Positions 5,550-40,124 of a stretch of DNA of 43,347 bases are shown in pieces. Each line of letters starts with the position of its first letter. Position 1 is the first letter of the stretch. Source of the DNA: a bacterium (GTDB lineage Bacteria > Patescibacteriota > Microgenomatia > JAMCZE01). The notes under the pieces are model-generated. The model saw only the letters and a list, made by a program, of their open reading frames with translations, was not told the DNA's origin and searched no databases. Both the position numbers and the translations under genes were made by a program. Where the stretch lies: the NCBI GenBank assembly GCA_021836035.1, contig JAKBJL010000005.1, positions 1-43,347 on the forward strand, read 5' to 3'.

Positions 5550-5725
5550 AATTAATTTGCGAAGCAAATTACCCCGAGCGGAGTAGAAGGTTTCTGCCCT
5601 CCGCCAGAACAATTTGTTTCTTTTAATAATAAAAGGCGGGTCTCCCCACCTCTTAATTCTTACCGTTTATATTGTAGCACTAAGCTCTCGGGCGGGTCAA
5701 TGCCCCGGCCGATTTTGCCCAGGCA

Positions 5726-5744
5726 AGCACAAAAAATTTGTGCT
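5726..5744. promoter_or_regulatory. 19-bp palindrome AGCACAAA-AAA-TTTGTGCT in the divergent nusA / glycosidase intergenic region; candidate operator
   Basis: It has perfect 8-bp inverted arms read directly from the sequence, 33 nt upstream of the 5777 start. Confidence 0.3.
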
Positions 5745-5776
5745 AATCCTAGACTAGGAAGGATCTGCCGAAATTA

Positions 5777-8431: not shown

Positions 8432-8541
8432 ATAACGACGGGCATGTCGATATTGCCGATTTAAGAATCGCTTTAACATCCTTCGGCAGCCCCTACAATA
8501 TTTTTGACATCAGTGAGGTAATTAGCAATTTTGGGAAGTGA
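8287..8541 (+). pseudogene. out-of-frame C-terminal continuation of the glycosidase, carrying a dockerin/EF-hand-like Ca-binding repeat
   Basis: The alternative frame reads ...SDSAVKIGTYQPGTFTPEDLNNDGHVDIADLRIALTSFGSPYNIFD, which has a D-x-N-x-D-G-x-V-D-x-x-D motif. The main frame ends in the non-descript SELPIVPLKSVPTNRELLPPKI. The frames overlap across 8287-8431. Confidence 0.5.
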
Positions 8542-8551
8542 CCGGGACGGG

Positions 8552-9472
8552 CTAAAACCACCCGTTCCTTTTTTTCGCGGAAGCTTTTTGGTAGTCTTCC
8601 AACAATTCTTTCTGTTCACGATTTAAACGGGTCGGGATTTTAATTTTGACCCGGACAAATTCGTCTCCGGTAACGTTCATCCGCGGAATTTTAATCCCCC
8701 GTCCGCGCAGGCGGATAACCGTATCCGGCTGGGTGCCTGCCGGGATTTTTAGGGTTACCGGGCCGTCAATCGTCGGTACTTCAATCGTCGTCCCGAGTAC
8801 CGCCTTATCAAAATCTACCCGGGTTTCGACAATAATATTAGCCCCTTCCCGCTGAAAGGCTTTATCCGGCCAAACCTGGATCACCACGTCAAAGTCCTCA
8901 AATCGGACGCGGGTGCCGTCGTCTACCCCGGCGGGAATCTTAAGTTTTTGTTGTTTCCCCGAAATCTCTACCGTCTTTTCCGTTCCCTTGGCCGCTTCCA
9001 TAAAGGTCAGTCCCAGAGAATAAGTTGCCCTTCTGCCCCGCCTTTGGCCGGCAGCGCTAAATCCTCCGCCGAAAAACTGTTCAAAAATCTCAAAAGGATC
9101 CGAAAAACCTCCGAAGTCCCATCCCGAAGCCGGTCCGCCTTGGGCGGAAAACCCGGCAAAGGGGTTCTGCCCTCCACCGTAGTTTCCATAACTATAGGTA
9201 AAAGGTCCCTGCTGGTATCCTCCGCCGGGCCCTTGGCCGGCTCCCTGGGTAAAGGCGGCATGACCAAACCGGTCGTAGGCCTGCTTTTTCTGGGGATTGG
9301 AAAGGACCTCATAAGCTTCGTTAACTTGTTTAAACTTTTCCGTCGCCCGGGGATCTTTATTGCGGTCCGGATGCCACTCCAAGGCCATTTTACGGTATGC
9401 CGCTTTAATCTCCTGCTCGCTGGCATTTTTTCCTATTCCCAAAGTCTGGTAATAATCCTGATTATTAGCCAT
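8552..9472 (-). CDS. dnaJ: DnaJ-class co-chaperone, type II (J domain + G/F region + C-terminal domains, no Zn-finger CxxCxGxG repeats)
   Basis: It has DYYQTLGI...HPDRN, a G/F-rich linker, and the last position in the hrcA-grpE-dnaK-dnaJ operon. I prefer the ATG at 9472 (MANNQDYY), because the ORF-track start at 9478 is a TTG. Confidence 0.9.
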   Translation of the reverse strand: MANNQDYYQTLGIGKNASEQEIKAAYRKMALEWHPDRNKDPRATEKFKQVNEAYEVLSNPQKKQAYDRFGHAAFTQGAGQGPGGGYQQGPFTYSYGNYGGGQNPFAGFSAQGGPASGWDFGGFSDPFEIFEQFFGGGFSAAGQRRGRRATYSLGLTFMEAAKGTEKTVEISGKQQKLKIPAGVDDGTRVRFEDFDVVIQVWPDKAFQREGANIIVETRVDFDKAVLGTTIEVPTIDGPVTLKIPAGTQPDTVIRLRGRGIKIPRMNVTGDEFVRVKIKIPTRLNREQKELLEDYQKASAKKRNGWF

Positions 9473-9482
9473 AAACAAAAAA

Positions 9483-9580
9483 GAGTAATCGCAAATATAC
9501 GAATTTTAGGCAAAATATACCAATATACGGATTAGCATATAAGTATATTTCGTTTTAAATTGGTATATTAGAGATTACTC
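9483..9580 (-). promoter_or_regulatory. nested inverted repeats filling the dnaK-dnaJ intergenic spacer
   Basis: The outer arms are GAGTAATC (9483-9490) and GATTACTC (9573-9580). The inner perfect 11-bp arms are AATATACCAAT (9514-9524) and ATTGGTATATT (9559-9569). Confidence 0.4.
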
Positions 9581-9582
9581 CC

Positions 9583-11505
9583 TTATTCTACTACTTCCCC
9601 TTCTACCGGTTCTCCGGTCCCTCCGGCGGATCCGCTGGTCCCGCCGCCCGATCCCTGCTGCCCCTGTTGTCCGTCCCCCTCAGCCGTTTGACTATTCCCC
9701 GGTTGTCCGCCCGGGGCGGAATACATAGCCTGTCCGATTCTCTGTAATTCGTCGGAGAGCGCCCGCGATTTAGTTTCCATCTCTTCTTTACTGCCGCTAT
9801 CTAAAACTTTTTTCAGGTCCGCAATTTTTTCTTCTACATTTTTCCGGACATCAGCAGGCACCTTATCCCCCGCGTCCTTAAGAGATTTTTCCGCCGTAAA
9901 TATGAGGGAGTCGGCGTTATTTTTGGCGTCAATTGATTCTCTTTTCTGCTTATCTTCCTCGGCGTGCGCTTCCGCCTCTTTGGTCATCTTTTCAATTTCG
10001 TCTTTGGAGAGGCCGGTCGAACCGGTAATTTTAATGCTTTGCTCGCGGCCGGTGGCTTTATCTTTGGCTTTGACGCTCAAAATCCCTGAGGCGTCGATAT
10101 CAAAGGCCACTTCAATCTGCGGAACGCCGCGCGGCGCCGGGGGAATACCGTCCAAAATAAACCGTCCCAGAGACTTGTTGTCCGCGGCCATAGGCCGCTC
10201 GCCCTGAAGGACGTTAATTTCTACCTGGGTTTGATTATCTGCCGCCGTAGAAAATATTTGCGACTTACTCGTAGGCACGGTTGTATTCCTCTGGATAAGG
10301 GGAGTATCTACGCTCCCCAAGGTTTCAATACCTAAAGTCAGCGGGGTAACGTCAAGGAGCAAAACATCTTTCACTTCTCCGCCCAGTACTCCTCCCTGGA
10401 CCGCCGCGCCGACCGCCACCACCTCATCCGGGTTGACCGATTTATTCGGCTCTTTACCGAAAAACTTCGTTACCGTCTCCACTACTTTCGGCATCCGGGT
10501 CATTCCCCCGACCATAACTACTTCGTCGATGTCGGTAGTTTTCTTTCCGGCATCGGCTAACGCTTTTTTGCAGGGTTCCAAAGTTTTCTGGATCAGATCG
10601 TCAACAATCTGCTCCAGCTTAGCCCGGGTCAATTTCATGGTTAAATGCAAAGGCCCGTTGGGCCCCTGGGTGATAAAAGGCTGGTTTATCTCCACTTCTG
10701 TTGCCGAGGATAATTCAATTTTGGCCTTTTCCGCTGCCTCGCGCAGTCTCTGCAAAGCCTGTGGATCTTTGCGCAAATCGACCTGGTTTTCTTTCTTAAA
10801 TTCGTCGGCAATATAATCTAAAATCTTTTTATCAAAATCATCGCCGCCGAGGTGAGTATCACCGTTGGTCGATTTTACTTCATAAACACCTTCGCCTAAT
10901 TCCAAAATGGAAACATCAAAAGTGCCGCCTCCCAAGTCGTAAACAACGATGGTATGGGCGTTTTTCTTGTCCAGACCGTAAGCAAGTGCTGCCGCCGTCG
11001 GTTCATTAATTATCCGCAGGACTTCAAGGCCCGCGATCTCTCCCGCTTGTTTGGTCGCCTGTCTTTGGGCATCGTCAAAATAGGCCGGAACCGTAATTAC
11101 CGCCTGGGCAACCTTCCCGCCCAGGTAAGCCTCGGCGTCTGCTTTAATTTTTTGGAGAATCATCGCGGAAACTTCCTGAGGGGTAAATTGCCGTCCCGCA
11201 ACCTCCACAACCGCCATGCCGTCGCGGCCGGATTTAATTTCATAAGGCAGCCACTTAGTATCATATTGGACCGAGGGATCGGTGTATTTCCTCCCCATGA
11301 GCCTTTTGATGGAAAAAATCGTTTCCTTGGGTTTGAGAACTAATTGGCGTTTAGCAACATCGCCGACGACATGGGTGATCGGATCGACTACCGACGGAAT
11401 AACATTCCGCCCTTCGCGGCTGTAAATAACCTTCGGCGAGCCGCCTTCCATCACGGCAACGCAGCTATTGGTTGTTCCTAAGTCAATTCCGATAATTTTT
11501 GCCAT
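9583..11505 (-). CDS. dnaK: molecular chaperone DnaK (Hsp70)
   Basis: It has [26 protein letters not shown] and a Gly/Gln-rich tail ending EGEVVE. Confidence 0.98.
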
Positions 11506-11564
11506 ACTTTTAATTTATTATATTAAATCCGAAACCCGAATTTCGATATTCAAAAAAATTCAAT

Positions 11565-12032
11565 TTAGACTTTTTTACTTACTTTTACTTTTGCCGGCCG
11601 GATAACCCTGCCGTTCAGGCGGTAACCCTTTTGGATTATCCCTAAAACCTTGTTATCTTCTTCTCCGGGAATGACTTCCAGCGCTTCAAACAGGTTAGGG
11701 TCGAACTCTTCCCCTTCCGCTTTTATCTCCTCTAATCCCTTATTTTTTAAGATTATCTTTAACTTGTCAATTATCAATTGCAGGCCGGTGTCCTGGATAT
11801 GTTCCTGGGCTTTTTCCAGATTATCCAGAATTTCGAGCAGCTGCGCAATCAAATCCTGATTGGCGAATTTAACAAATTCTTCTTTCCAGCTCTGCGTTTG
11901 TTTCTCTAAATTCTGATAATCCGCCAGCGACCGCAAATATTTATTGTTCAGGTCGGTTGTTTTATCCTCCAATTCCTGAATTTTCTGTTTTAGACCGTCT
12001 GGTTCGTTATTTTCATTTTTGCTTATTTTCAT
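11565..12032 (-). CDS. grpE: nucleotide exchange factor GrpE
   Basis: A 155 aa protein with a coiled-coil N-terminus (YLRSLADYQNLEKQ) and a beta-domain C-terminus (GYRLNGRVIRPAKVKV), in the expected operon position. Confidence 0.9.
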   Translation of the reverse strand: MKISKNENNEPDGLKQKIQELEDKTTDLNNKYLRSLADYQNLEKQTQSWKEEFVKFANQDLIAQLLEILDNLEKAQEHIQDTGLQLIIDKLKIILKNKGLEEIKAEGEEFDPNLFEALEVIPGEEDNKVLGIIQKGYRLNGRVIRPAKVKVSKKV

Positions 12033-12083
12033 CGCCTTCTATCTTGTTATCTGCCGTTAGCCTGTCAATTATCCATTTGCCTG

Positions 12084-12815
12084 TTACCAATTCCCTACCA
12101 TTTCATCAATCAAATTTCCGAAATAGCGGATGGTGGGAATTACTACCGGGTAATTAAACCGGTAGGGGCCGATAATCCCTATCGAGCCTCCGTACTTTTT
12201 TCCCTCACCGAAATGGGTAAATACTAAACTGCAAGGCTCCAAAAAGCTCTCCCCCAGATCATCACCGATCAGGATATGAATGTCTTCCGGACCGACAGCT
12301 CGTTCAAAAAGGTGATTGACGTAATCGATCTGGTCCAGCATGGAAAGAACCGTCCGGGTGAGGTCAATATCATAAAATTCCGGCATGTCCAAAATATTGG
12401 CTGCCCCAGCGGAATAAAGATTATGTTCATTATCGAGGGCCACCGCCAGACTTTTGGTACGCCGGGCTAGCTCCCGGGTCGCCTCCCCGAGCGTCTTGCG
12501 AAACTCGCTACGATAATTCCAAAGCTTTTCTTTTACGGCAACCTCATCGGAAACGGAAAGATCTCGGGGCTTCATGAGGTTGCTGACATAATATTTTAAA
12601 GCCAAAGGGGTAGGAGTCCTCCCGGAACTGGTATGAATTTGCTTCAGATAGCCCAGTTTGGTTAGCTCACCCATCTCGTTCCTGATGGTGGCCGGTGAAA
12701 CACCGAGACCGTACTTTTTATCCAGCTTTTCGGAACCAACAGGAGCTGCTGTTCCAATATATTCATCAATGACCGACCTGAGAATTTCTTTTTGTCTTTC
12801 CGAAAGATCCTGCAT
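12084..12815 (-). CDS. hrcA: heat-inducible transcription repressor HrcA, short form (~243 aa)
   Basis: It has LSERQKEILRSVIDEYIGTAAPVGS (a winged HTH) and a C-terminal GIIGPYRFNYPVVIPTIRY. I prefer the ATG at 12815, because the ORF-track start at 12839 is a TTG. A CIRCE operator lies directly upstream. Confidence 0.85.
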   Translation of the reverse strand: MQDLSERQKEILRSVIDEYIGTAAPVGSEKLDKKYGLGVSPATIRNEMGELTKLGYLKQIHTSSGRTPTPLALKYYVSNLMKPRDLSVSDEVAVKEKLWNYRSEFRKTLGEATRELARRTKSLAVALDNEHNLYSAGAANILDMPEFYDIDLTRTVLSMLDQIDYVNHLFERAVGPEDIHILIGDDLGESFLEPCSLVFTHFGEGKKYGGSIGIIGPYRFNYPVVIPTIRYFGNLIDEMVGNW

Positions 12816-12860
12816 ATGGTATTTCTTCAGACCAGGCAATTGTCCCGAGCCTGCGAAGGG

Positions 12861-12887
12861 TTAGCACTAATCTAACATGAGTGCTAA
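12861..12887. promoter_or_regulatory. CIRCE operator (HrcA binding site)
   Basis: TTAGCACTA-ATCTAACAT-GAGTGCTAA closely matches the consensus TTAGCACTC-N9-GAGTGCTAA. Confidence 0.88.
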
Positions 12888-12897
12888 AAGTTGTCAA
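12869..12897 (-). promoter_or_regulatory. sigma70-type promoter of the hrcA-grpE-dnaK-dnaJ operon, overlapped by CIRCE
   Basis: The minus strand reads TTGACA (12897-12892), a 17-nt spacer, then TAGATT (12874-12869). Confidence 0.65.
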
Positions 12898-12995
12898 GGG
12901 GTGAACCGGGCGGTTCATCCTAAAAACACCGTCAGAAGCCAAGCATGAGGCATTTTCGCCCAGAAAGTACAGCCGAATACTTGGCATAGACGGGG

Positions 12996-13274
12996 TTAAT
13001 TCTGGAAAGTTTCCATGTCTACCCGCTCCCCGATAAACTTTACCCCCTCCGCTTCCAGCCTTTTGCGCTGTTCCCAACAGCCTCCGAAAGCAAAAGCGTC
13101 CGATAAATGCCCGTCGGCGAAAACTACCCGGTGGCAAGGTACCTCGGGCGACTGATTCCGGTGGAGAATTCTTCCGACCGCCCGCGCGCCGGTCCCGGCG
13201 CATTTGGCCACCTGACCGTAAGTCATTACTTTACCGACCGGAATTTGAGAGACGGCCGCATAAACTTTTTGCAT
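12996..13274 (-). CDS. ogt: methylated-DNA-protein-cysteine methyltransferase, DNA-binding/active-site domain only (~92 aa)
   Basis: It has GKVMTYGQVA and the active-site PCHRVV. I prefer the ATG at 13274 (MQKVYAAVSQIP), because the longer track ORF (to 13373) would swallow the groES promoter. Confidence 0.8.
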   Translation of the reverse strand: MQKVYAAVSQIPVGKVMTYGQVAKCAGTGARAVGRILHRNQSPEVPCHRVVFADGHLSDAFAFGGCWEQRKRLEAEGVKFIGERVDMETFQN

Positions 13275-13362
13275 ACTATTAATATAACCCCCAGTCAAAT
13301 ATATTGCTACGCTGGCGCCCGGAGGTGGGGATCGCAGCAACAATATAATTTTAATGCGGCCC

Positions 13363-13392
13363 TTGACAACCAAAACGGGTATGTTCTAGAAT
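13363..13392 (+). promoter_or_regulatory. groES-groEL promoter
   Basis: TTGACA (13363-13368), an 18-nt spacer, then TAGAAT (13387-13392). Confidence 0.55.
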
Positions 13393-13417
13393 AGCAATCG
13401 ACTAACAGGAGTGACAA
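13391..13417. promoter_or_regulatory. degenerate CIRCE-like element downstream of the groES -10
   Basis: ATAGCAATC-GACTAACAG-GAGTGACAA matches the CIRCE consensus at 7/9 in each half. The two halves are poorly complementary to each other (5/9). Confidence 0.35.
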
Positions 13418-13438
13418 CCTTACTGCCCCGGTAAGTTT

Positions 13439-13738
13439 ATGGCTAAAACAAATATTCAACCGTTATTTGACTATGTCCTGGTAAGACCGCTTGAGGGCGA
13501 AGAAAAAACCGCCAGCGGTATTCTTCTTCCCGATACCGCAAAAGAAAAACCCCAAATGGGAACGGTGATGGCCGTCGGCCCGGGAACGGTTACAGATGAG
13601 GGTAAAAAAGTTCCCATGCAGGTTAAAAAAGGCCAGAAAGTTATTTATAAAAAATGGGGCGGCAACGAAATTAAGGTCTGCTCCGAGGAGTGGTTGTTGG
13701 TCGAACAGAAAGATATTATGGGAATCGTTGATGATTAG
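13439..13738 (+). CDS. groES: co-chaperonin GroES
   Basis: A 99 aa protein with PLFDYVLVRP...ASGILLPDTAKEKP...GTVMAVGPG. Confidence 0.97.
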   Translation: MAKTNIQPLFDYVLVRPLEGEEKTASGILLPDTAKEKPQMGTVMAVGPGTVTDEGKKVPMQVKKGQKVIYKKWGGNEIKVCSEEWLLVEQKDIMGIVDD

Positions 13739-13768
13739 CGCATAGCGTAAAGAATTTTTATACGCTAA

Positions 13769-15424
<1,656 letters not shown>

Positions 15425-19119: not shown

Positions 19120-20211
19120 TTAGGGCTTGTCAAATGTATTCATATCTTCCGCTAATTTAGCGCTTTTTGAGGCAAGACTATCCAGAATTACCCGCCTTTC
19201 TCCGCCTTGCAAAAAGCGCGGTTGACCGTAATTTTCAATAATTAAAGGATAAAACTGCGCATCCGCTAACTGTTGCTGATAGAAAGTAAAGCGGCCGGCT
19301 ATGCCCTGTTTGGTCGGCAGGCTCCATTCCTGGTCAAAAATAAAATTACCGAGAGAATAAACAATCAATTTTCCGCGGTAAACTTCTAAAGACTGGATCC
19401 AATGGGGATGACTGCCGGCCACCAGGTCCGCCCCCGCGTCAATTGCCAGGTGTGCTAATTTTATCTGGCGGCTATCCGGTTGATCGGTATATTCCCGGCC
19501 CCAATGAAACAGAATAATAACCACCCCCGCGTCGGGGCGGGCAGCGGCAATCCCCTCCCGGACCCGCTCGGCGCTAACAGAAGCGATTGTGTCGTCGTAA
19601 GCCAGGAAAGTAAAAAGAAGATTGTTTATTTTCCGAAAAGTAGGTTTATTATCCCTCACCGTCAGAATATCTTTGGCTGCTAATACTTCTGCCGTTTCCT
19701 TTATCCCCGCTTCTCCGAAATTGCCGGCATGGTTATTGGACAGGCCCGCGATGTCAATGCCGGCAGCCGCCAAACCCTCAGCCTGCCGGGCGTCACCGCA
19801 AAATTTAAAGCCGCCGCTTATCACCGGACAAGCGGCAAGCAAAGGGCTTTCCAAATTAACGAGAGTCAGGTCTGCGCTTTGAAGAAACGGCGCGACCTTT
19901 TCCCATGGCCAGGAAAAATTTTGCTTTTGGATCACCAGCCTGTTGACCGTTCTCCCCAACATGACATCTCCGGTAATAATTAAAGTCCGCTTTCGCTCGG
20001 CGGGCAGGGTTGCCGTCCAGCTATGATCTTCCTGAAAAATCCGGTTTAAATCGAGCGGCCCCAAAGAGGGAGATTCCGGGAGTTTAATCTTGGCGGCTAA
20101 AGTTTCCTGCCGGGATCCGGTTTTCGGCCGCGGCTCCGTCCTTTTAATCCCTAATCCCCAAGCTAAAAATACCAACAACATTAAGCCGATCAGCAACCCC
20201 GGCTTTTTCAT
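19120..20211 (-). CDS. capA: CapA/PgsA-family metallophosphatase-like protein (poly-gamma-glutamate capsule synthesis family)
   Basis: It has an N-terminal TM segment, GDVMLGR, LSNNHAGNFG and GSHPHWIQ. Confidence 0.78.
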   Translation of the reverse strand: MKKPGLLIGLMLLVFLAWGLGIKRTEPRPKTGSRQETLAAKIKLPESPSLGPLDLNRIFQEDHSWTATLPAERKRTLIITGDVMLGRTVNRLVIQKQNFSWPWEKVAPFLQSADLTLVNLESPLLAACPVISGGFKFCGDARQAEGLAAAGIDIAGLSNNHAGNFGEAGIKETAEVLAAKDILTVRDNKPTFRKINNLLFTFLAYDDTIASVSAERVREGIAAARPDAGVVIILFHWGREYTDQPDSRQIKLAHLAIDAGADLVAGSHPHWIQSLEVYRGKLIVYSLGNFIFDQEWSLPTKQGIAGRFTFYQQQLADAQFYPLIIENYGQPRFLQGGERRVILDSLASKSAKLAEDMNTFDKP

Positions 20212-20661: not shown

Positions 20662-21306
20662 TTAATTTTTTAACGGATTAAAAGTAACACGGGTTTGCCG
20701 GGAAAATTTGTTACTCAACGGGTTAAGGGAGCGCTGCCATATCTCCGGATCATTAATAGCTATATCCGTAAGTTCCGGAAGAATTATGGTTTTTTTTGTA
20801 AAACCAGCCCTGCTGTTTAAATTGTCGGTAATATAGGGAACACAGCTGCCCAGGGTTTCGCCAAAGGCGTTAGTTTCCACGTCTTTGGTTATTTTAAAAC
20901 CACGGCGCTTGGCCTCTTCCAAAACCGGATTTATGGCCCTGGGGCTATAGGTAACGTCGATATCGTGCGGGATAACCAACATCCGGGATCCCAAAATCTT
21001 TTGCATTTCTAATAGCGTCCGCGCATAATCTTTATTTTCATTAATATCCTCTTCCAACACCTCCGCGGTAGCATGAGTAAAAACGAAAAGGAGCTCGTCA
21101 TTTCTCATACCTTTGGCTTTTTCCACATACTTCCCCAGCAGCAATCTGTATTTAACCCGGGTAAAAGAATCCATTGCCTGCAAATCAACCTTATCCGGAT
21201 CCGTTAAATACCCCGGATGAATTAGGAAATTAATCCGGCTTACCCTAACCGGTAAATGTTCCCCGGATTCCCCACCTATAGGCCGTTTAAGTAAGTTTTC
21301 TACCAT
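20662..21306 (-). CDS. hypothetical alpha/beta protein with weak isochorismatase/cysteine-hydrolase-like features
   Basis: Beta-strand-like segments alternate (RINFLIHPGY, LLFVFTH, RMLVIPHD, KKTIILPE). NAFGETLGSCVPYIT resembles the G-x-x-T-x-x-CV catalytic-Cys motif of that family. This is motif-level evidence only. Confidence 0.45.
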   Translation of the reverse strand: MVENLLKRPIGGESGEHLPVRVSRINFLIHPGYLTDPDKVDLQAMDSFTRVKYRLLLGKYVEKAKGMRNDELLFVFTHATAEVLEEDINENKDYARTLLEMQKILGSRMLVIPHDIDVTYSPRAINPVLEEAKRRGFKITKDVETNAFGETLGSCVPYITDNLNSRAGFTKKTIILPELTDIAINDPEIWQRSLNPLSNKFSRQTRVTFNPLKN

Positions 21307-21351
21307 ATTAACTTTTTCCGGCTTCCTAATTTAATCTGGGTCTTGCTGCGC

Positions 21352-21380
21352 ATTATGCCACCAAAGCAGAGTAGCGTCAA
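21352..21380 (-). promoter_or_regulatory. promoter of the 20662-21306 gene
   Basis: The minus strand reads TTGACG (21380-21375), a 17-nt spacer, then CATAAT (21357-21352). Confidence 0.55.
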
Positions 21381-21540
21381 ATTAATCCCGGCTGGTTCAG
21401 GCCAACTGAACAGGCAAATGCTATCGGTCTACTGTCGGAAAACCCGCTGATTATGGAAAATTTCCCGTAAGAGAACAAAAATTCACCGCCCGGAAAGGAC
21501 GGTTCTTAGAAAAAACCCCGTGGTTAATTTGCTTGTCGTA

Positions 21541-21569
21541 TTGACATCTAACGCCTGATCAAATATATA
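21541..21569 (+). promoter_or_regulatory. promoter of the cytidine-deaminase-fold gene
   Basis: TTGACA (21541-21546), a 17-nt spacer, then TATATA (21564-21569), 39 nt upstream of the ATG at 21609. Confidence 0.6.
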
Positions 21570-21608
21570 AGAGGTAATTAGGTACACCTGCCGTCTGTTT
21601 AAGGGTGC

Positions 21609-22694
21609 ATGCCAGAACAACATTGGGAATACGTCGCGGTTGCCGGTAAAAGAAACGGAAAGCCAAATTTTCCCCCCCTCAACCGGGAGCAACAAAAACT
21701 AATCCCCGCCTTTGACGATGCCTTAAATGTAGCAGCCCAATCTGAAGTTTCTCACCCTATCTATTCCGGCTACCGCGTCAAGGAGTCAATTTCCGGGTTG
21801 CCTGCGGGGAACATTTCTTATGGCAAAAAAAGGGCTTTACACGGAGAGGAAGTTGCCGTAGCCAACATCTATTCAAAAGAGGGTATTGTCTCTGCTTCCG
21901 AATTGCCCTTAATTCTCAGAAATATTGCCACTTATAATCCCGCTATTGCCCTCCCCAAAATAATTCCCAATCTGATATTAGCAATTATTGCCCACGACCC
22001 GGATGGGATGGCTAAGCCTTGCGGTAATTGCCTGGATTTGCTGAGAGACAAATTAGGGCGGTCCCTCAACGTCGTTTTCGGGGCCAGTGGCGGAGGCGAA
22101 GCGAAAGTGGCAAAATTGGGCGATTTCCTTTTTGAAGTCGGCCGGGAGCACCGCATCAGCTTAAGAGCAAGAGAAGGACCTAATTTAATCGCCACCCTGG
22201 CCGGGCAAACCTTCAGCGAAGGAACAAGGCTGACCGATGACGCCTATGTTTCTAAAGCCGAAGCGCTTTCCCGCAATTACAACGCATTAGTCGTTACGAA
22301 TAAAGGCAAATACTACGGCGGCTATGAATGCCTCTGTGATTATCACCCGATTTATGCCGGCCGGGATGCTATCCGCCAGGCCCGGCGGGCCCATGACTAT
22401 TTTCTGCGCTACGCACTTTTTACAGCCCCCGGCCCGGGAAATAATCCTCCGGATATAATGTACATGGATCGGCAGCATTTAATGGAGTACGCTCTTATTG
22501 GAGACCTGGAAACAGGCAGAGAAGGTGATAAACCTGTTTATCTCGCTTCCATAGACCCGCAAAGGAAAGCCGTCACCGGTTTATGGCAAACAAGCGTTAG
22601 AGAATTTCTGCCGTTCCCTTTTAGCCCGATTAATTTTGGTGAGGAATTTGTTTCTCATTTCAAAGAATATTATCGCCGGCGGAAACGGTTTTAG
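21609..22694 (+). CDS. divergent two-domain cytidine/deoxycytidylate-deaminase-fold protein
   Basis: The N-terminal half has LHGEEVAVANIY (an H-x-E zinc/catalytic motif) and KPCGNCLDLL (a PCxxC zinc motif). The C-terminal half lacks these motifs but ends VREFLPFPFSP, like the LLP-x-x-F end of cytidine deaminases. This resembles the E. coli Cdd catalytic + pseudo-domain layout. Confidence 0.55.
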   Translation: MPEQHWEYVAVAGKRNGKPNFPPLNREQQKLIPAFDDALNVAAQSEVSHPIYSGYRVKESISGLPAGNISYGKKRALHGEEVAVANIYSKEGIVSASELPLILRNIATYNPAIALPKIIPNLILAIIAHDPDGMAKPCGNCLDLLRDKLGRSLNVVFGASGGGEAKVAKLGDFLFEVGREHRISLRAREGPNLIATLAGQTFSEGTRLTDDAYVSKAEALSRNYNALVVTNKGKYYGGYECLCDYHPIYAGRDAIRQARRAHDYFLRYALFTAPGPGNNPPDIMYMDRQHLMEYALIGDLETGREGDKPVYLASIDPQRKAVTGLWQTSVREFLPFPFSPINFGEEFVSHFKEYYRRRKRF

Positions 22695-22743
22695 CGGTTC
22701 CAGGGTGTTTGAGGATTGAACCCTCTTCCGGAGTTTAACAATC

Positions 22744-22770
22744 AGTTCGGATAATGACACTTCTTGAAGT
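22744..22770. repeat. copy A of a 27-nt imperfect direct repeat bounding the QueC-like cassette
   Basis: AGTTCGGATAATGACACTTCTTGAAGT matches 24069-24095 at 23/27, and all 4 differences are transitions. It starts 2 nt after the QueC-like stop codon. Confidence 0.7.
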
Positions 22771-22771
22771 T

Positions 22772-23926
22772 TTACCCAAACAGGACACCATAACGATGAT
22801 CCAAATCAGATAAGTGCGAATGAAAGCTCGTCGAAACGGTATTATGCCCATATCTTTTTATCCATTGTTTGGTGTCTTTAATAAAATATGATATTTCTTC
22901 GGACGGCACACCAGAAAGTCGAGTGTCCTCATAGTAAATTCGTCCAAGTACGGTTCTTCGACATTTGGGACAACTTCCACAAGTGTTTTCACTTAAACAT
23001 GCTTTTGCCAATTCCGGAGTTTTCCGCTCCCATTTACGCCGGTTGTTGGCAGCCCAGCATTTCCGGGTAAAGCAGTTTTGAACTAAAGGAAGAATAGTGA
23101 TATTTAACTTTTTTTCCAGGTTTAGGATTTCCCCTACCGTTTCAATATCACCGGGATATTCTCCGGTTACATTAATATCCAACCCGGCATCCGATAGCAA
23201 ATTATTGAACAAATTCCACGCGCCTTTGGATTCACTGAAATCACCCTCATCCGGCGAATCTACAAACCCGCCCTCTACAAGCACTTCTTTAATTCCATAA
23301 CGATAGGCCGTTAAAACTACTGTTGCCGCGACCAGTAGATCTCTAACTCTCATAACATCCAATCCCTTAAGTTCCGAACTGTTGATTACTTTAACTTCCG
23401 TAAAGGGAACATTCCATTGTTTACATTGATAGCTGCTTCTCTCAGCTTCATCTCCGGGCAATACACGGTTGAGGTTTCTAAGATGAACCGCTCTGACCAT
23501 TTCTCCACGGGCTAAATGGCTGGCAAGCCGGAAACATGAATCCAATCCACCGGAATGAGAATTGACGATATATGCGCCGTCATTTAGCTTGGATTCGTTT
23601 GAATGAAATTCAAGGTTTAATCTATTGCTGTTTGCAGAAATTTTTGGAGGGCGGTATCCATAATAATCGTAAAGAGCGTTTACTAAATCGGTATAATTGA
23701 CCGGAAAATTTGTTTCAATAATCCGGGGAAAATAAGCGGATACTAAATGCGACAAGGCAACAGTGCGCCACAAGTCCCGGATAACTTTTGGCTGATCAGA
23801 TAAAGATCTTTCTGGATCGACTATCGCGATCTGTTCGTTGTGTTTTTTTCCTTTAAGTTTCAGACTAAACGGATTCTTCGGTGAAATATTAACCTCGCAT
23901 TTATCCGCTTGTTCGATTCTGGTCAT
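22772..23926 (-). CDS. QueC-family PP-loop ATP pyrophosphatase-like protein with a ~120 aa N-terminal extension
   Basis: It has VNSHSGGLDSCFRLA (the SGGxDS PP-loop). The C-terminal Cys cluster is QNCFTRKC...CGSCPKCRR, as in the QueC zinc site. Confidence 0.7.
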   Translation of the reverse strand: MTRIEQADKCEVNISPKNPFSLKLKGKKHNEQIAIVDPERSLSDQPKVIRDLWRTVALSHLVSAYFPRIIETNFPVNYTDLVNALYDYYGYRPPKISANSNRLNLEFHSNESKLNDGAYIVNSHSGGLDSCFRLASHLARGEMVRAVHLRNLNRVLPGDEAERSSYQCKQWNVPFTEVKVINSSELKGLDVMRVRDLLVAATVVLTAYRYGIKEVLVEGGFVDSPDEGDFSESKGAWNLFNNLLSDAGLDINVTGEYPGDIETVGEILNLEKKLNITILPLVQNCFTRKCWAANNRRKWERKTPELAKACLSENTCGSCPKCRRTVLGRIYYEDTRLSGVPSEEISYFIKDTKQWIKRYGHNTVSTSFHSHLSDLDHRYGVLFG

Positions 23927-23932
23927 GGCCGG

Positions 23933-23961
23933 ATTCTAGCAACGGCCAATTTCCGTGTCAA
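23933..23961 (-). promoter_or_regulatory. consensus promoter of the QueC-like gene with leaderless geometry
   Basis: The minus strand reads TTGACA (23961-23956), a 17-nt spacer, TAGAAT (23938-23933), then 6 nt (CCGGCC) and the ATG at 23926. Confidence 0.65.
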
Positions 23962-24048
23962 CTAATATAGCGATTTGACAATCCAAACTATTAAACCGGG
24001 TCATGGCGCTTTTTTAATCCCACAGCAAGGGAAGCAACTCAGGGAAGC

Positions 24049-24076
24049 AAAAAAACATTCCGAACTTTAGTTCGGA
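24049..24076 (-). terminator. Rho-independent terminator of the signal-peptidase-like gene
   Basis: The minus strand reads UCCGAACU-AA-AGUUCGGA followed by AUGUUUUUUUG. It overlaps repeat copy B. Confidence 0.65.
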
Positions 24077-24095
24077 TAGTGGCATTTTTTGAAGT
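24069..24095. repeat. copy B of the 27-nt direct repeat
   Basis: AGTTCGGATAGTGGCATTTTTTGAAGT. See copy A for the match. Confidence 0.7.
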
Positions 24096-24183
24096 GTCAG
24101 CAATATAGGGTACCACATTAATTTTATCTATCAGCCCCAAATGGAAGGTATTCGAACATTTTGTGCTCAATTAGTGGTATCTT

Positions 24184-24735
24184 TTAATACCTGAAGGCTA
24201 TTTTTCCGACAATATCCTGTTTACCTATGAAACCTAAACTACGTGAATCAATACTATTATTTCTGTTGTCGCCCATCATAAAATAGCTATTATCGGGAAT
24301 TGTAATTTCTTGGCCTTCGTCTAAAATCTTTGGTCCTCCCGTATCCTCAATTTTTCCAGTTGTTTCAGATATATCTATAATCGCACTTTTATTGGCTGTC
24401 GTTGTTACAGTACCAGGTTGTAGATAACTTTCAGCTAGTACCGCGCCATTCAGATACACTTTACCGTTTTGTATTTTTATTTTGTCTCCTGATAGAGCAA
24501 TTATTCTAGCAATACCTGAATAATGGGGATTCTGAGTGTAGCCAAAAGTTACAACATCACCTCGTTGGGGCGAAGAAAAAGTATATGCTAGTTTATTCAC
24601 AAGAAATCTCTCACCACTCTTATAAGTTGGTTCCATTCCAGGTCCATTTATTGATACAGGTTTGAAAGTGACAAATAGGGTTACTAATAAACCAGCTAAT
24701 ACTCCAATAACCACGAACTGTAAAATCTTTGACAT
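24184..24735 (-). CDS. type I signal peptidase (S26) homologue lacking the Ser/Lys catalytic dyad; predicted pseudo-peptidase
   Basis: It has an N-terminal TM segment. Box B reads NGPGMEPTY where SM-x-PT is expected. Box C RGDVVTF is intact. Box D reads GIARIIALSGD where Y/F-I/V-K-R-x-x-G-x-PGD is expected. Box E MMGDNRNNSIDSR is intact. Confidence 0.75.
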   Translation of the reverse strand: MSKILQFVVIGVLAGLLVTLFVTFKPVSINGPGMEPTYKSGERFLVNKLAYTFSSPQRGDVVTFGYTQNPHYSGIARIIALSGDKIKIQNGKVYLNGAVLAESYLQPGTVTTTANKSAIIDISETTGKIEDTGGPKILDEGQEITIPDNSYFMMGDNRNNSIDSRSLGFIGKQDIVGKIAFRY

Positions 24736-24741
24736 AATTTA

Positions 24742-24770
24742 AATCTAACAGGAGAAAATGTTAGTTACAA
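24742..24770 (-). promoter_or_regulatory. promoter of the signal-peptidase-like gene with leaderless geometry
   Basis: The minus strand reads TTGTAA (24770-24765), a 17-nt spacer, TAGATT (24747-24742), then 6 nt and the ATG at 24735. Confidence 0.55.
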
Positions 24771-24996
24771 GTAGTGTGTTATATAGAGATGGCTATGAGA
24801 AAAGGCTATTTGAATTTTCAGCAGACATGGTTGGAATCGAGCTTGCTCTTCTTTAAATACCATGTGGTCGTGGATGAAGGCAAAACTTGCCGAAACGGCT
24901 AATCTAGCTAGTCGATGGGTGAGTCGGTTTGGCAGTGTTTTATGCGGAAATCGTTCGCGCCTATGTGTGGTACTAAAATGTAGGTCTTAGACTATA

Positions 24997-27864
24997 TTAA
25001 CGCCCTAAATCCTTATCAAGGTGGCAATGTTTATATTTCTTCCCACTCCCGCACCAGCAGGGATCGTTTCTCCCCGGCTTTTTAATTCCCGGCGCGGAAT
25101 TCCCTACGGGTAAGCCGCTCGTCCTTGAACTTGAACTTGCACTTTGTTTTATTTGCTGTGCTTCCTCTTTTACTCCTGCCTCGATATTTTCAATCTGCGC
25201 CGCATTCGTAGTCGCCCGCTGCATTTGGGCGATCTGCTCAGGCGTCGCGACGGCAATTTTATAAATCCGGTGGACGATTTCGTAATCAACAGAGGCAATC
25301 AATTTTTCAAACATTGTAAAGGCTTCCGCCTTATATTCAACCAACGGATCCCTTTGGGCGTAACCCCGCAGCCCTATGCCTTCGCGCAAATCGTCGATTT
25401 CCTCGAGATGTTCCATCCATAAAGCGTCTATTACCCGAAGCATTTCCTGTTGTTCAATATAACGGGTAATTTTCCCGCCCAATTGTTTCTCTCTTTGTTC
25501 ATAAATATCATGCGCAATTTTTTGTAATAAAGGGCCTAGGGATGAGGAGCTGGCAGCTAGTTGAACAACGATTTGCTTTTTCGAATTATCATCAAAGGGA
25601 ATGATCGTCGAAAATTCTTCAATGATTTTTTCCGTGCCGTTTTTATCCCCTGTTTCGACTACCCCATATTGTTCTTTGCCGCCGGAATTGATAGCCACCA
25701 GATTTTCTATTTCCTTATCAATTTTGGCTAAAATTTCTTCTTTCAGCCAATGACCATTTTCCGCGGCCTCCCCATTCCCGTCTTCCGTTTCCATTTCCTT
25801 CCCCTCGCTTGCCCCGAGTGAAATCGCAGGGTCAGCGGCTAGCCCCGTCTCATTAGCCCCCCTATTTAAAGCGCTCAACACTTTCCGTCTTAATCCATAG
25901 ATGATCTCCCTCTGCTTGTTCATCACGTCGTCATATTCCAAGAGGTGCTTGCGGGAATCAAAATTAAATTGCTCTACTTTCGATTGAGCCTGCTCAATCG
26001 ACTTGCTGACCATACCGTGTTCCAGGGGCTGGTCTTCGGGAATATTAAAAAGGGTCATGAGCCGCGCTACCTGTTCCCCGCCGAAAAGGCGCATAACGTC
26101 ATCGTCCAGCGCGACAAAAAACCGGCTAGAACCGGGGTCCCCCTGGCGCCCCGCCCGGCCCCGCAGCTGGTTATCAATCCGTCGCGACTCATGCCGTTCC
26201 GTGCCGATCACATGCAGGCCGCCAAGCGTGACTACTTCGTCATGGTCCTTCTGCCAGGCTTTCCACTCCGGACTGCCGATCAGCGGACGCCCGTCTGCCT
26301 GTTTGGGCGTTACCCCGCCTAAAATAATATCGACGCCGCGGCCGGCCATGTTGGTCGCGACGGTAACGGCGCCGCGCTTTCCCGCCTGGGAAATAATCAG
26401 GGCCTCCTTTTCGTGCTGTTTGGCATTTAAAACCTGGAAAGGAATACCTTTGTGGCGCAGAAACTGGGAAATAATCTCATTTTTCTCGATAGAGGTGGTT
26501 CCGATTAAAACCGGCCGGCCGATTTTATGCATTTCCTCAATTTCCCGGACGACCGCGGAATATTTCGCCCTCTGCGATTTATAAACCTGGTCGGTAGAAT
26601 CATTCCGAACCATCTGCTTATTAGTCGGAATGGCAATTACTTCCAGATTGTAAATTTTATGAAACTCTTCCGCCTCCGTCGCCGCGGTCCCCGTCATCCC
26701 GGCCAACTTTTCGTATTTCCTAAAATAATTTTGCAGGGAAATAGTCGCCAAAGTCCTGCTTTCCTGCTGGATGGGAACACCCTCTTTGGCTTCGACAGCC
26801 TGGTGAATTCCTTCGCTCCAGCGCCGTCCCGGCATCAGTCTCCCGGTAAATTCGTCAACAATTATCACCTCGTTGTCGCGGACTATATAATCTTTTTCGC
26901 GGTGGTATAGGGTTCTGGCTTTCAAAGCCGCTTCAACATGATGAACCGTCGCGAAATCTTTTTCGTAAATATCTTTAGATCCTAACATCTGCTCAATTTT
27001 GCCGATCCCGTGGTCGGTAAGGTTGGCAGTATGCATTTTTTCGTCAACGACATAATCCAGTTTCGCCGTTAAACCTTCCACCAAACGCGCATATTCGTAA
27101 TATTTCTGTGTCGGCTCCGCGTCGGGGGCGGAAATAATATGCGGCGTCCGGGCTTCATCGATTAAAACCGAGTCCACTTCGTCAACTATCGCGTAATGGA
27201 AATCGCGCTGGACCAGCTCCGCTTCTTCGCGGGCCATATTGTCCCGGAGATAGTCAAAACCGAACTCGGAATTAATACCGTAGGTAATATCCGCACCATA
27301 GGCTTCTTTGCGGGATACCGGACGCAGGTGGCGCAGGCGCCAATCGGGCGCGTTTTCATCCGTAAATTCCGGATCATAAACGAAAGAGGCTTCGTGAATA
27401 ATCGCCGCGCAGGACAATCCCAGAATATGATAAATCGGGCCCATCCAGCCGACCCCAACCCGCGCCAGGTAATCGTTAACGGTAACCAGGTGTGCGCCTT
27501 TGCCGGTCAGGGCATTTAAATAAAGTGGCATGGAGGCGGTTAAAGTCTTCCCTTCCCCCGTTTTTTGTTCAGCGATTTTTCCCTGGTGCAAAGCAATTGC
27601 GGCCATCACCTGGACATCAAAATGGCGCTCGTTATTAACCCGGGCGCTGGCTTCCCGGACCAGGGCATAAGCCTCGGGGAGCAGCCCGTCGAGAGAACCG
27701 CCCTTAGCCAGTTTCTCTTTCAACTTCGCTGTTCTTTTGGCAAAATCGGCTTCTTTCAGCTTCTTGACCTCTTTTTCCCAAGCATTAACCTCCGTTACCA
27801 ACGGCATTAACTTTTGAACCTGGCGTTCATTGCTGTCAATAATTTTCCCAATAAAATCCAGCAT
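24997..27864 (-). CDS. secA: preprotein translocase ATPase SecA
   Basis: It has TGEGKTLTASMPLYLNAL, DEVDSVLIDEARTP, TNMAGRGVDI and the C-terminal zinc motif CWCGSGKKYKHCH. Confidence 0.98.
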   Translation of the reverse strand: MLDFIGKIIDSNERQVQKLMPLVTEVNAWEKEVKKLKEADFAKRTAKLKEKLAKGGSLDGLLPEAYALVREASARVNNERHFDVQVMAAIALHQGKIAEQKTGEGKTLTASMPLYLNALTGKGAHLVTVNDYLARVGVGWMGPIYHILGLSCAAIIHEASFVYDPEFTDENAPDWRLRHLRPVSRKEAYGADITYGINSEFGFDYLRDNMAREEAELVQRDFHYAIVDEVDSVLIDEARTPHIISAPDAEPTQKYYEYARLVEGLTAKLDYVVDEKMHTANLTDHGIGKIEQMLGSKDIYEKDFATVHHVEAALKARTLYHREKDYIVRDNEVIIVDEFTGRLMPGRRWSEGIHQAVEAKEGVPIQQESRTLATISLQNYFRKYEKLAGMTGTAATEAEEFHKIYNLEVIAIPTNKQMVRNDSTDQVYKSQRAKYSAVVREIEEMHKIGRPVLIGTTSIEKNEIISQFLRHKGIPFQVLNAKQHEKEALIISQAGKRGAVTVATNMAGRGVDIILGGVTPKQADGRPLIGSPEWKAWQKDHDEVVTLGGLHVIGTERHESRRIDNQLRGRAGRQGDPGSSRFFVALDDDVMRLFGGEQVARLMTLFNIPEDQPLEHGMVSKSIEQAQSKVEQFNFDSRKHLLEYDDVMNKQREIIYGLRRKVLSALNRGANETGLAADPAISLGASEGKEMETEDGNGEAAENGHWLKEEILAKIDKEIENLVAINSGGKEQYGVVETGDKNGTEKIIEEFSTIIPFDDNSKKQIVVQLAASSSSLGPLLQKIAHDIYEQREKQLGGKITRYIEQQEMLRVIDALWMEHLEEIDDLREGIGLRGYAQRDPLVEYKAEAFTMFEKLIASVDYEIVHRIYKIAVATPEQIAQMQRATTNAAQIENIEAGVKEEAQQIKQSASSSSRTSGLPVGNSAPGIKKPGRNDPCWCGSGKKYKHCHLDKDLGR

Positions 27865-28049
27865 AAATTCCCTTCTTCAGGTTTTATTTTATCACTTATC
27901 GGCGCTCCCGAGACGGCCGAAACCGCGATTTTAAATCTTTAACCTCCTGCCGTCAACAAATTAGTCCCTTGTAATCCGCTCCCGATAAGTTTAAAAATTT
28001 ATTGCACACAATTTACTCTGCCCACACATCTTATGCCTACACTTGGGAT

Positions 28050-29222
28050 ATGGCATTAAGCGAAGAAGAAATTGCCAGGCACAAGGCGGAAAGCGACGCC
28101 GAATTCCAAAGGCTAATTGTCAGGGGAGAAGAAAAAGACGGCTCCCAAATCCCGGATTCCCCCCCGGAAAATAAGCACCCCAAAAAAGAAAAAATTCCCT
28201 TTATTAAAAGGCTTCTGGGTAAAGATCGTATTTATATCAGCAGCGTCATCGAGAAAATGATTGAGATCACCGACGAAAATAAGCCGCCGGCAGATAATCC
28301 CTCGGGAGAGCTAAAGAAACGACGGACAAGAAGCAAAAGGGAAGAAATGCTCTCTAAGAAAGGCGGCTTTATAGGCCACGATATTATTCCCTTAATCGTA
28401 ATTGCTGCCCAAAACCCCCGTATCTCCCTTTCTTCTCTGGAAAAAACGTTCCCTTCAAAAACTCCCACGGAAATTAAAAAATTGAAAAGCCGGATTGAAG
28501 CGGCCCTAAAACCAGAGGAATCGGTAACCGATTTACCGGTGGATATTTTAACCCTCATTGAATCCTCAAAGGATATTAAAGGTTATGATGAATGGTACTG
28601 GAGCCGGTACGAAAACAGGAAAGACAACAAAAAACAAAAGGCATGGGAAAAACAACGCGCCGCGGGGCAAGATACTTTTCTGGATATCAACGCTTATTAT
28701 CAGAAACCGCCCCGTGATATTTTGGTCCGCTCGGCGGGAGAAATTGCCCGGCAGGTAATTTATCACCCCCTGCTTTCTGATCCCGAAACCCGCCTAGAAA
28801 TCGAGCGCTCGCAGATTACCCCTACCGCTACCGATTTCTTTATTTCCAGCCGCGATGATATTTTATTAATTGATCGGGACGGCAATCGGTTTCCGCTGGA
28901 GCTGAAACCGCATCCGGTCGGCGGGAAAAGGGTAAGAATCGAAACTTTTGCCGCTCTTAAAATTAACGAGGCGGCAAAAAGAGGCGGATTTAATCGGGTG
29001 GTTAACATCTATCCGCGGGGAGAAGAAAGTTATCACATTGACGTTGCCAAATCGCTCATCGAAGGCACTTTTGTCCCGCCCGGGATTTATCATGTTATTT
29101 TGGGTCTGAATTTTAACGGAGAAGCGTATTATCCCCAGGTTATCCTGGACCCGCCGACGTTGGCAGTATTGGAAGAAACTTTTACGGAAGCCTTAAAGCG
29201 CCTCACCGGCGCCGACCTCTGA
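28050..29222 (+). CDS. hypothetical protein; C-terminal region has a possible PD-(D/E)xK-like signature
   Basis: I prefer the ATG at 28050 (MALSEEEIARH) over the TTG at 28002. It has a charged, low-complexity N-terminal third. The C-terminal ATDFFISSRDDILLIDRDGNRFPLELKP fits D...E-x-K spacing, which is speculative. Confidence 0.5.
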   Translation: MALSEEEIARHKAESDAEFQRLIVRGEEKDGSQIPDSPPENKHPKKEKIPFIKRLLGKDRIYISSVIEKMIEITDENKPPADNPSGELKKRRTRSKREEMLSKKGGFIGHDIIPLIVIAAQNPRISLSSLEKTFPSKTPTEIKKLKSRIEAALKPEESVTDLPVDILTLIESSKDIKGYDEWYWSRYENRKDNKKQKAWEKQRAAGQDTFLDINAYYQKPPRDILVRSAGEIARQVIYHPLLSDPETRLEIERSQITPTATDFFISSRDDILLIDRDGNRFPLELKPHPVGGKRVRIETFAALKINEAAKRGGFNRVVNIYPRGEESYHIDVAKSLIEGTFVPPGIYHVILGLNFNGEAYYPQVILDPPTLAVLEETFTEALKRLTGADL

Positions 29223-39765: not shown

Positions 39766-39839
39766 GCCGCCATCGTCTAGTGGTCCAGGACATATGGTTC
39801 TCATCCATAAAATCGAGGGTTCGAGTCCCTCTGGCGGCA
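39766..39839 (+). tRNA. tRNA-Glu (anticodon CUC), 74 nt, CCA not encoded
   Basis: I folded the cloverleaf by hand. Acceptor stem: GCCGCCA/TGGCGGC. D stem: GTCT/GGAC. Anticodon stem: TATGG/CCATA, with loop TTCTCAT. T stem: GAGGG/CCCTC, with loop TTCGAGT. Confidence 0.9.
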
Positions 39840-40124
39840 CAAATCCTCCTTAGTTTTGTAAGGACAACGCAAGCCGGGGCGCCCCGAAAAAATGTCTTTT
39901 GCTTATCCCCTTCTTTACTGAAAGCAGGGTAACGGACATCTAAAAGAAAGCTGTTTTAAAACTTCCCTCGTATGACAAGCGACAGGACCCTAAATTATAA
40001 TTGAATTTATTAAAAGATATCTACTGTTCCGGAAATGCTACTATATATAATGGGGAGTGGTTATTTTATGGCTTTTAGAATTTGGTTTCACCGCGAGTAC
40101 CGGTAGTAACGAAATAGAGAGCAG

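Follow-up and report, generated by a model that had tools for sequence, protein, structure and literature searches.

Members of the QueC superfamily have been recruited in immunity to deazaguanylate proteins (PMC13279940, PMC13329287). Canonical QueC is defined by the motifs YxQxHxxE, VPxRN and YPDC, which are essential (Libby et al. 2026, PMC13329287), and Cap9 of type IV CBASS, a minimal protein of ~185 amino acids (aa), keeps the canonical QueC pocket and adjoins a CD-NTase (PMC13329287). In QatC of the QatABCD system, an alpha/beta extension precedes the QueC core and three helices follow it (Gao et al. 2026, PMC13279940); an invariant Thr-x-Thr replaces the Tyr-x-Asp motif that recognizes 7-carboxy-7-deazaguanine (CDG), and the protein binds the N-terminal Gly of its partner. 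Outside this superfamily, SipA (LepA) of S. pyogenes is a signal-peptidase-like protein that has no Ser-Lys dyad and serves as a non-catalytic pilus-assembly factor (Young et al. 2014, PMC4049620). Here we compare these proteins with the products of four consecutive genes, called A, B, C and D, in a stretch of 43,347 nucleotides (contig JAKBJL010000005.1 of assembly GCA_021836035.1; hereafter the window) from a deep-branching, Microgenomatia-related bacterium whose DnaK is ~67% identical to that of Collierbacteria. The four open reading frames (ORFs) lie between a capA-like gene and secA, where a first-pass annotation of the window had placed them:

20662..21306, minus strand: gene A, 214 aa, member of an uncharacterised ~200-aa family (ORF and relatives)
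21609..22694, plus strand: gene B, 361 aa, two-domain cytidine-deaminase-fold protein (alignment and AlphaFold2 (AF2) model)
22772..23926, minus strand: gene C, 384 aa, QueC-superfamily PP-loop ATPase (motifs and AF2 model)
24184..24735, minus strand: gene D, 183 aa, membrane-anchored signal peptidase I homologue with its catalytic dyad replaced (family models and SpsB alignment)
19120..20211, minus strand: capA-like left flank, PGA_cap (Pfam PF09587, E 1.5e-57)
24997..27864, minus strand: secA, right flank (Pfam SecA_DEAD, E 1.1e-112, and four other SecA domains)

Distribution and adjacency of the four gene families

The first-pass annotation had proposed that the four genes form a functional module. 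Our analyses indicate that the block is very likely a chance juxtaposition of four independently transcribed, evolutionarily unlinked genes. Profile hidden Markov models of families A, B and C, together with phmmer and tblastn searches with D, were run over all ORFs of the fetched loci, which comprised 27 loci anchored on C homologues (~23 distinct, their flanks 8-10 kb long or, on short contigs, shorter), 8 anchored on B homologues (6 distinct), the locus of the closest relative of A, and the metagenomic locus L034, which carries the closest relative of D (~30 distinct loci altogether). A second family of the four was absent from every tested locus and no two of the families were adjacent, the very outcome that the annotation had named as telling against a module. 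The families also differ in their distribution, with C present in Collier-, Woese- and Shapirobacteria or Microgenomates and B in Uhrbacteria and Parcubacteria. The description of the four genes as non-housekeeping proved to be an assumption, since B and C homologues in other genomes have housekeeping genes around them.

Genes A and B are divergent and genes B and C convergent, each of the four is preceded by a promoter-like site of its own, and between D and C lies a terminator-like hairpin. These features suggest four separate transcription units, and they argue against co-transcription rather than for a module:

21352..21380, minus strand: promoter-like site upstream of A, TTGACG-17-CATAAT, TG-extended (consensus match only)
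21541..21569, plus strand: promoter-like site upstream of B, TTGACA-17-TATATA (read by eye)
23933..23961, minus strand: promoter-like site of C, TTGACA-17-TAGAAT, 11 of 12 consensus positions (scan)
24059..24076, minus strand: terminator-like hairpin with a T-run downstream of D, between D and C (sequence scan)
24991..25019, minus strand: promoter-like site upstream of D, at the end of secA (scan)

A near-consensus promoter had been claimed for each gene, and sites are indeed present before all four, that of B having been missed by the promoter scan because position 6 of its -10 hexamer is not T. Their number in the region, however, shows no excess over chance (8 versus 8.5 +/- 2.8 in shuffles). 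The site of C stops 6 nt before the ATG (at 23926) and no Shine-Dalgarno sequence is present, which suggests that the mRNA of C is leaderless.

It should be noted that several observations weigh against chance juxtaposition. Adjacency was examined within flanks of only 6-10 kb, and less on short contigs, and the B side is represented by just 6 distinct loci and the A side by one. The host is distant from every compared genome (DnaK ~67%), so a pairing private to its lineage may exist. Both B and C have folds that act on nucleobases or come from enzymes that handle them. In addition, homologous HAD hydrolases of ~257 aa (32% identity) lie directly beside B homologues in two lineages (L030, 5148-5921; L114, 3241-4014), and a related HAD (25% identity, E 7e-9) is convergent to the two closest C homologues (L116, 5777-6562; L006, about 1811-2851), which gives a weak hint of a shared nucleotide or phosphoester metabolic context; no HAD gene is present in the window.

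These observations could be accommodated if B and C, perhaps with A, formed a lineage-specific pathway of nucleobase modification or salvage, in which C activates a carboxylated base and B acts on the product. Besides the nucleobase-handling folds and the related HAD hydrolases that adjoin B homologues and some C homologues elsewhere, the two genes are only 77 bp apart, and the window proteins are the most divergent members of their own families, deviating at 24 of 88 (B) and 20 of 104 (C) conserved columns. However, the two genes converge and have a promoter-like site each, no B homologue occurs in the flanks of the ~23 distinct C loci and no C homologue near the 6 distinct B loci, and the divergence fits an organism-wide distance, given a DnaK identity of 67% and other family members that go down to 38-42% among themselves. 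Unusually fast evolution of B and C was therefore set aside and is not read as joint neofunctionalisation, and we consider a shared pathway improbable.

Gene C compared with QueC, QatC and Cap9

Gene C encodes a remote member of the QueC superfamily with a QatC-like architecture, and the protein passes neither the QueC nor the QatC model. Its Pfam QueC match is weak (E 0.02, 14.8 bits against a cut-off of 22), as are its matches to the PADLOC 'QueC' model (E 0.026) and to TilS (E 0.012), and the window protein has no QatC match in PADLOC or NCBIfam. The family comprises 79 clusters of ~375-390 aa, and a scan of 185,579 species genomes (GTDB) returned 21 loci. All loci with credible names belong to Microgenomatia (Collier-, Woese- or Shapirobacteria, or Microgenomates), while several metagenome-assembled genomes (MAGs) with a C homologue are labelled 'uncultured Pseudomonadales/Gammaproteobacteria'. 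One homologue is split over two ORFs (L016, 9917-11128), reflecting a frameshift or an assembly error, and in one Shapirobacteria MAG there are two C paralogues, located on separate contigs (L006, L020).

Among 38 aligned members the invariant residues are HSGGLDS (124-130), which contains the SGGxDS pyrophosphate-binding loop (PP-loop), R195-D196, E218-G219, C285 and C316-G-x-C319-x-K-C322-R-R. The four cysteines (285, 316, 319, 322) have the spacing C-x30-CxxCxxC and may bind a metal. The canonical substrate motifs are altered: HLRNLN-x6-E stands in place of YxQxHxxE, MRxRD in place of VPxRN with the Arg alone kept, and (H/D)FSE(Y/S)xPA in place of DFSGYPDC, with the Asp and Cys lost and FS kept; all three correspondences come from low-confidence alignments whose register was guided by an hhalign comparison of the C family with E. 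coli QueC (probability 1.6%), and they should be taken as a rough guide only. The core is preceded by an N-terminal extension (residues 1-118) and followed by a C-terminal helical extension.

The AF2 model of C (pLDDT 88, pTM 0.88) has as its top Foldseek matches in the Protein Data Bank (PDB) the QatC chains 9y01_B and 9y02_B (E 1.6e-7, 382 aligned columns; TM-score 0.44-0.48, normalised by query length), followed by B. subtilis QueC (3bl5) and then Cap9 (9nto_B), and phage QueCs rank first in a BFVD search with the same model. Like QatC (9y01/9y02), C has the three-part layout, a PP-loop core with a Cys4 site and a length of ~400 aa; it keeps SGGxDS, the RxR after the third strand and the RR pair after the last Cys, and it has lost the canonical QueC substrate motifs, as described for QatC (PMC13329287). 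It differs from QatC in sequence (~14-15% identity) and in occurrence, the C family being conserved and syntenic in one bacterial class instead of patchy, and having no QatA, QatB or QatD nearby. With QueC it shares the core fold (target-normalised TM-score 0.66-0.69), the PP-loop, the four Cys, the Arg of VPxRN and, as we infer, ATP-dependent activation of a carboxylate; it differs in its length (384 aa versus ~220 aa), in having no YxQxHxxE or YPDC and in its cysteine spacing (C-x8-CxxCxxC in QueC). Cap9 (9nto) is likewise a QueC-fold homologue of C (E 1.6e-4), but C has neither the minimal size, nor the canonical pocket, nor the CD-NTase neighbour of Cap9. Most likely, the PP-loop of C would serve to adenylate a carboxylate with ATP, and C would then form an amide, as QueC, Cap9 and QatC do, within a pocket that would be remodelled relative to that of QueC.

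The simplest identity for such a protein would be the preQ0 synthase of the organism, a canonical QueC with queD, queE and tgt elsewhere in the genome. The PP-loop, the Cys4 cluster, the VPxRN Arg and the FS of 'DFSGYPDC' are what such an enzyme would show, and one family member is labelled 7-cyano-7-deazaguanine synthase by JGI. However, the window protein falls below the Pfam QueC gathering threshold and only 8 of the 38 members match that model, weakly; YxQxHxxE and YPDC, which are essential in QueC (Libby et al. 2026, PMC13329287), are absent or changed; C has extra domains; and no queD or queE lies in any C neighbourhood examined. We therefore judge this identity very improbable. The first-pass annotation had assigned C to the QueC-like PP-loop proteins and had noted that its neighbours are not the partners known from the preQ0 pathway or from the Qat, CBASS and Dpd systems; the PP-loop, the four cysteines and the structural matches bear out the assignment. 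No QueD, QueE, QueF or TGT domain occurs in any ORF of at least 110 aa in the 43-kb window, no queD, queE, queF or tgt gene in the C-anchored loci examined, and an Rfam search of the window returned tRNA-Glu only, with no preQ1 or other riboswitch.

The resemblance to QatC also raises the possibility that the block is an island for anti-phage defence or DNA modification, in which new partners surround an enzyme of the QatC/Cap9/DpdC type. QatC of QatABCD is the best structural match of C, 11 of the 38 family members have weak QatC matches in PADLOC (best E 2.7e-4) and 31 of the 38 match its 'QueC' model weakly, and the GC contents of C and D are below average. Yet qatA (KAP NTPase), qatB and qatD (TatD nuclease) are found neither in the window nor beside the ~23 distinct C homologues, and CD-NTase, Cap10/TGT and DpdA/DpdB neither in the window nor in the C-anchored loci; no relatives of C or B were found in IMG/VR viral contigs, and no mobile-element repeats flank the block. 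A PADLOC check of the kind that the first-pass annotation had recommended gave a weak QueC-model match for C and no defence signal. Moreover, C is conserved, essentially single-copy and chaperone-syntenic across Microgenomatia, the pattern of a core gene and not of a patchy defence gene, which leaves a defence island with hardly any probability.

The synteny in question is loose and long-range. C homologues adjoin groES/groEL or lie less than 10 kb from dnaK, grpE, dnaJ or nusA (L016, L018, L019, L025, L026, L004/L005/L007), and in the window the chaperone cluster (4395-15424) lies upstream of the block. This proximity to chaperone genes both in the window and in Collierbacteria makes C look vertically inherited. 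Neighbour clustering of the C loci brought out synteny at the level of lineages and no conserved partner. Several loci have a small GIY-YIG gene upstream of C; this gene was considered as a partner and rejected because it is confined to particular lineages.

Genes B, D and A

Gene B encodes a divergent member of a two-domain zinc deaminase family that occurs across Patescibacteria. This family comprises 74 clusters in that group, with named members in Uhrbacteria, Parcubacteria or Patescibacteria, and the surroundings of its homologues are housekeeping genes (msrAB, LeuRS, TsaD, ribosomal protein genes and EF-G). The N-terminal domain carries H78-G-E80-E81 and P137-C138-G-N-C141 (HGEE...PCGNC), which are invariant in the family. 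N68-x-E70, which we take to be the ribose contact of nucleoside deaminases, is kept as N68-I-E70 in at least 90% of members and reads N68-I-S70 in the window protein. The C-terminal domain is similar to cytidine deaminase (CDA), degenerate and without zinc ligands, yet it holds the most conserved motifs of the protein, the invariant DYHPIYALRDAVRQARR and VMYKDRQH. Standard models recognize the family poorly, with a TIGR01354 score of 16.5 bits for B (cut-off 113.65) and weak matches to Pfam PF00383 in 15 of 37 members.

The best Foldseek matches of the AF2 model (pLDDT 84) are tetrameric CDAs (target-normalised TM-score ~0.8, root-mean-square deviation ~2.8 A). The N-terminal domain superposes on tetrameric Cdd (B. 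subtilis 1jtk, mouse 2fr5) and shares H-x-E and PCxxC with it, whereas the window protein differs from Cdd in E70S and R142L, which are among its 24 deviating columns, in an insertion and in its own C-terminal motifs. With the E. coli-type two-domain CDAs (1ctt, 4eg2) B has in common a second CDA-like domain without zinc ligands, but the domain arrangement differs: ~300 columns align and the global TM-score is poor (0.24-0.28). The insertion, of ~22 aa at about residues 95-120, is unique to the window protein and modelled with low confidence, and the zinc motif is intact on either side of it, in agreement with the first-pass view of B as a cytidine-deaminase fold 'split' by an insertion. That annotation had allowed for C being a canonical QueC and B an ordinary Cdd orthologue; neither was found. 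The B family would most likely deaminate cytidine-type nucleosides for pyrimidine salvage.

Gene D matches the S26 signal peptidase family strongly (Pfam E 2.8e-42; TIGR02227 154 bits against a cut-off of 47). When aligned with S. aureus SpsB it has Gly33 at the position of the catalytic Ser and Ala76 at that of the catalytic Lys, consistent with the first-pass description of a catalytically dead signal peptidase, and it retains Box E (GDNRNNSIDSR) and an N-terminal membrane anchor (residues 4-24 hydrophobic). A metagenome scan found one close relative, in L034 (2789-3340; 81% aa identity), all others being at or below 40%. The two genes are 79.5% identical in nucleotide sequence over a segment limited to 24141-24750, with unrelated flanks; those in L034 encode a Mur ligase, an RDD-family protein, DUF1801, a methyltransferase and an AEP-like primase (7873-8505). 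In the fetched metagenome loci 89 of 92 S26 homologues have the Ser/Lys dyad. A second S26 homologue lies on contig L091 (3302-3982) with Gly and Leu at the Ser and Lys positions, so that dyad-less paralogues are rare (3 of 92) but recurrent.

With both catalytic residues lost and a composition atypical for the genome, D might be taken for the decaying, functionless remnant of a signal peptidase. However, two organisms have an intact ORF, the products being 81% identical, the pair has a dN/dS of 0.12 at a dS of 0.94, and the L034 homologue keeps the Gly/Ala replacements, Box E and the membrane anchor. Decay is thus extremely improbable. Since its L034 relative keeps the dead dyad and dN/dS is low, D is a pseudo-enzyme that selection maintains. 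D was probably acquired horizontally from a lineage of lower GC content, as its composition (36.1% GC) fits the L034 genome (contig GC ~39%) better than the window (46.6%) and its context in L034 is unrelated.

SipA offers the closest described parallel, sharing with D an S26 fold, a membrane anchor, the replacement of both catalytic residues and conservation of the rest of the domain, and D may, by analogy, act as a helper that binds peptides without catalysis. In such a role, D would probably bind signal-peptide-like segments without cleaving them. The two proteins differ in that SipA has Asp and Gly at the dyad positions and lies in a sortase-pilus island, whereas D has Gly and Ala and lies beside secA, its L034 homologue sitting by the Mur ligase and RDD-family genes; no sortase or pilin domains occur in the window ORFs or near the L034 homologue. 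Nor are the two close in sequence, SipA being absent from the PDB matches of D at E <= 0.001.

Gene A had been described as an orphan encoding a putative hydrolase-like protein. A word-indexed search indeed returned A itself only, but an exhaustive HMMER search of representatives found 182 relatives (best 43% identity), which overturns the orphan status. The closest relative (P0155) has an unrelated gene context. No match was found in sequence searches of Pfam, NCBIfam, PADLOC or the PDB (the last also with a profile). The conserved residues are H30-P-G, E71, Y94, R108, R135-G, G149-E150, C155-V156 and T173, and the conserved His, Glu and Cys tentatively suggest an enzyme. The label 'ADP-dependent phosphofructokinase/glucokinase' given by JGI to one relative is backed by no Pfam match among 40 members and was rejected. 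The GETxxxCV stretch may resemble the isochorismatase motif. When the PDB was searched by sequence alone, neither the single sequences of A, B and C nor the family profiles of A and C had a significant match; weak PDB matches to TTHA1479 and TNFAIP8 were treated as chance.

Taken jointly, the evidence on C and D permits a further reading, which we regard as possible and rather unlikely, namely that the C family is an undescribed core-genome family of Microgenomatia with QatC architecture and without defence partners, and that D, separately, is a horizontally mobile, selected pseudo-signal-peptidase that helps secretion in ultra-small bacteria. On that joint reading, C may be a free-standing ATP-dependent ligase for a 7-deazaguanine-like or other carboxylated base, and its target may be a protein N-terminus or a metabolite in organisms of minimal biosynthesis. 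If true, QatC and Cap9, both defence enzymes, would have evolved from the C family or would have in it a counterpart devoted to housekeeping.

Genomic setting and implications

The rest of the window is core chromosome, encoding a DHH protein, IF-2, NusA, DnaJ, DnaK, GrpE, HrcA and GroEL, as well as an M23 peptidase, RNase HII, Ddl, SerRS, a class II aminoacyl-tRNA synthetase, GreA and tRNA-Glu. The order is that of the chaperone cluster, then capA, genes A to D and secA. Directly past secA, on the opposite strand, a 406-aa ORF (28002-29222) has no match in Pfam, NCBIfam or PADLOC.

GC content is 43.3% in A, 48.9% in B, 41.6% in C, 36.1% in D (24.5% at third codon positions) and 49.8% in secA. 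The value of 42% first given for C stands, while those for D (32%) and secA (55%) do not; similarly, of the two genes said to be AT-richer than the flanks, D is the sole clear outlier, among the lowest ~2% of 550-nt windows, and C is not a clear one. The lowest-GC patch of the window lies elsewhere, at 40001-40500 (34.2%), just downstream of tRNA-Glu (39766-39840); it contains a 119-aa ORF without a Pfam match and may be an integration hotspot.

Repeats of the kind that bracket a mobile element, direct or inverted, are absent from the ends of the block, and the sole repeat found is a 47-nt element with just two copies in the window:

22744..22790, strand not assigned: copy 1, overlapping the last codons at the 3' end of C (74% identical to copy 2)
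24069..24115, strand not assigned: copy 2, downstream of D and including the terminator-like hairpin of D (repeat search)

The element lies outside the segment that D has in common with L034, and it could be a genome-specific terminator, a repeat element or a recombination scar.

The failure of the module reading removes a false lead, and what remains of interest is the solitary C family, the B deaminase family and the D pseudo-peptidase. The C family, found here only in Microgenomatia, is outside current QueC models; lying below the Pfam QueC threshold, it was probably outside the published PF06508 survey, and a solitary QatC-shaped family would extend the picture of QueC repurposing to a non-defence setting in reduced-genome bacteria. 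D, under purifying selection in two unrelated contexts, makes a clean candidate for a secretion factor without catalytic activity. Finally, Patescibacteria depend on nucleoside salvage, and their metabolic reconstructions are affected when standard models overlook a two-domain deaminase present throughout the lineage.

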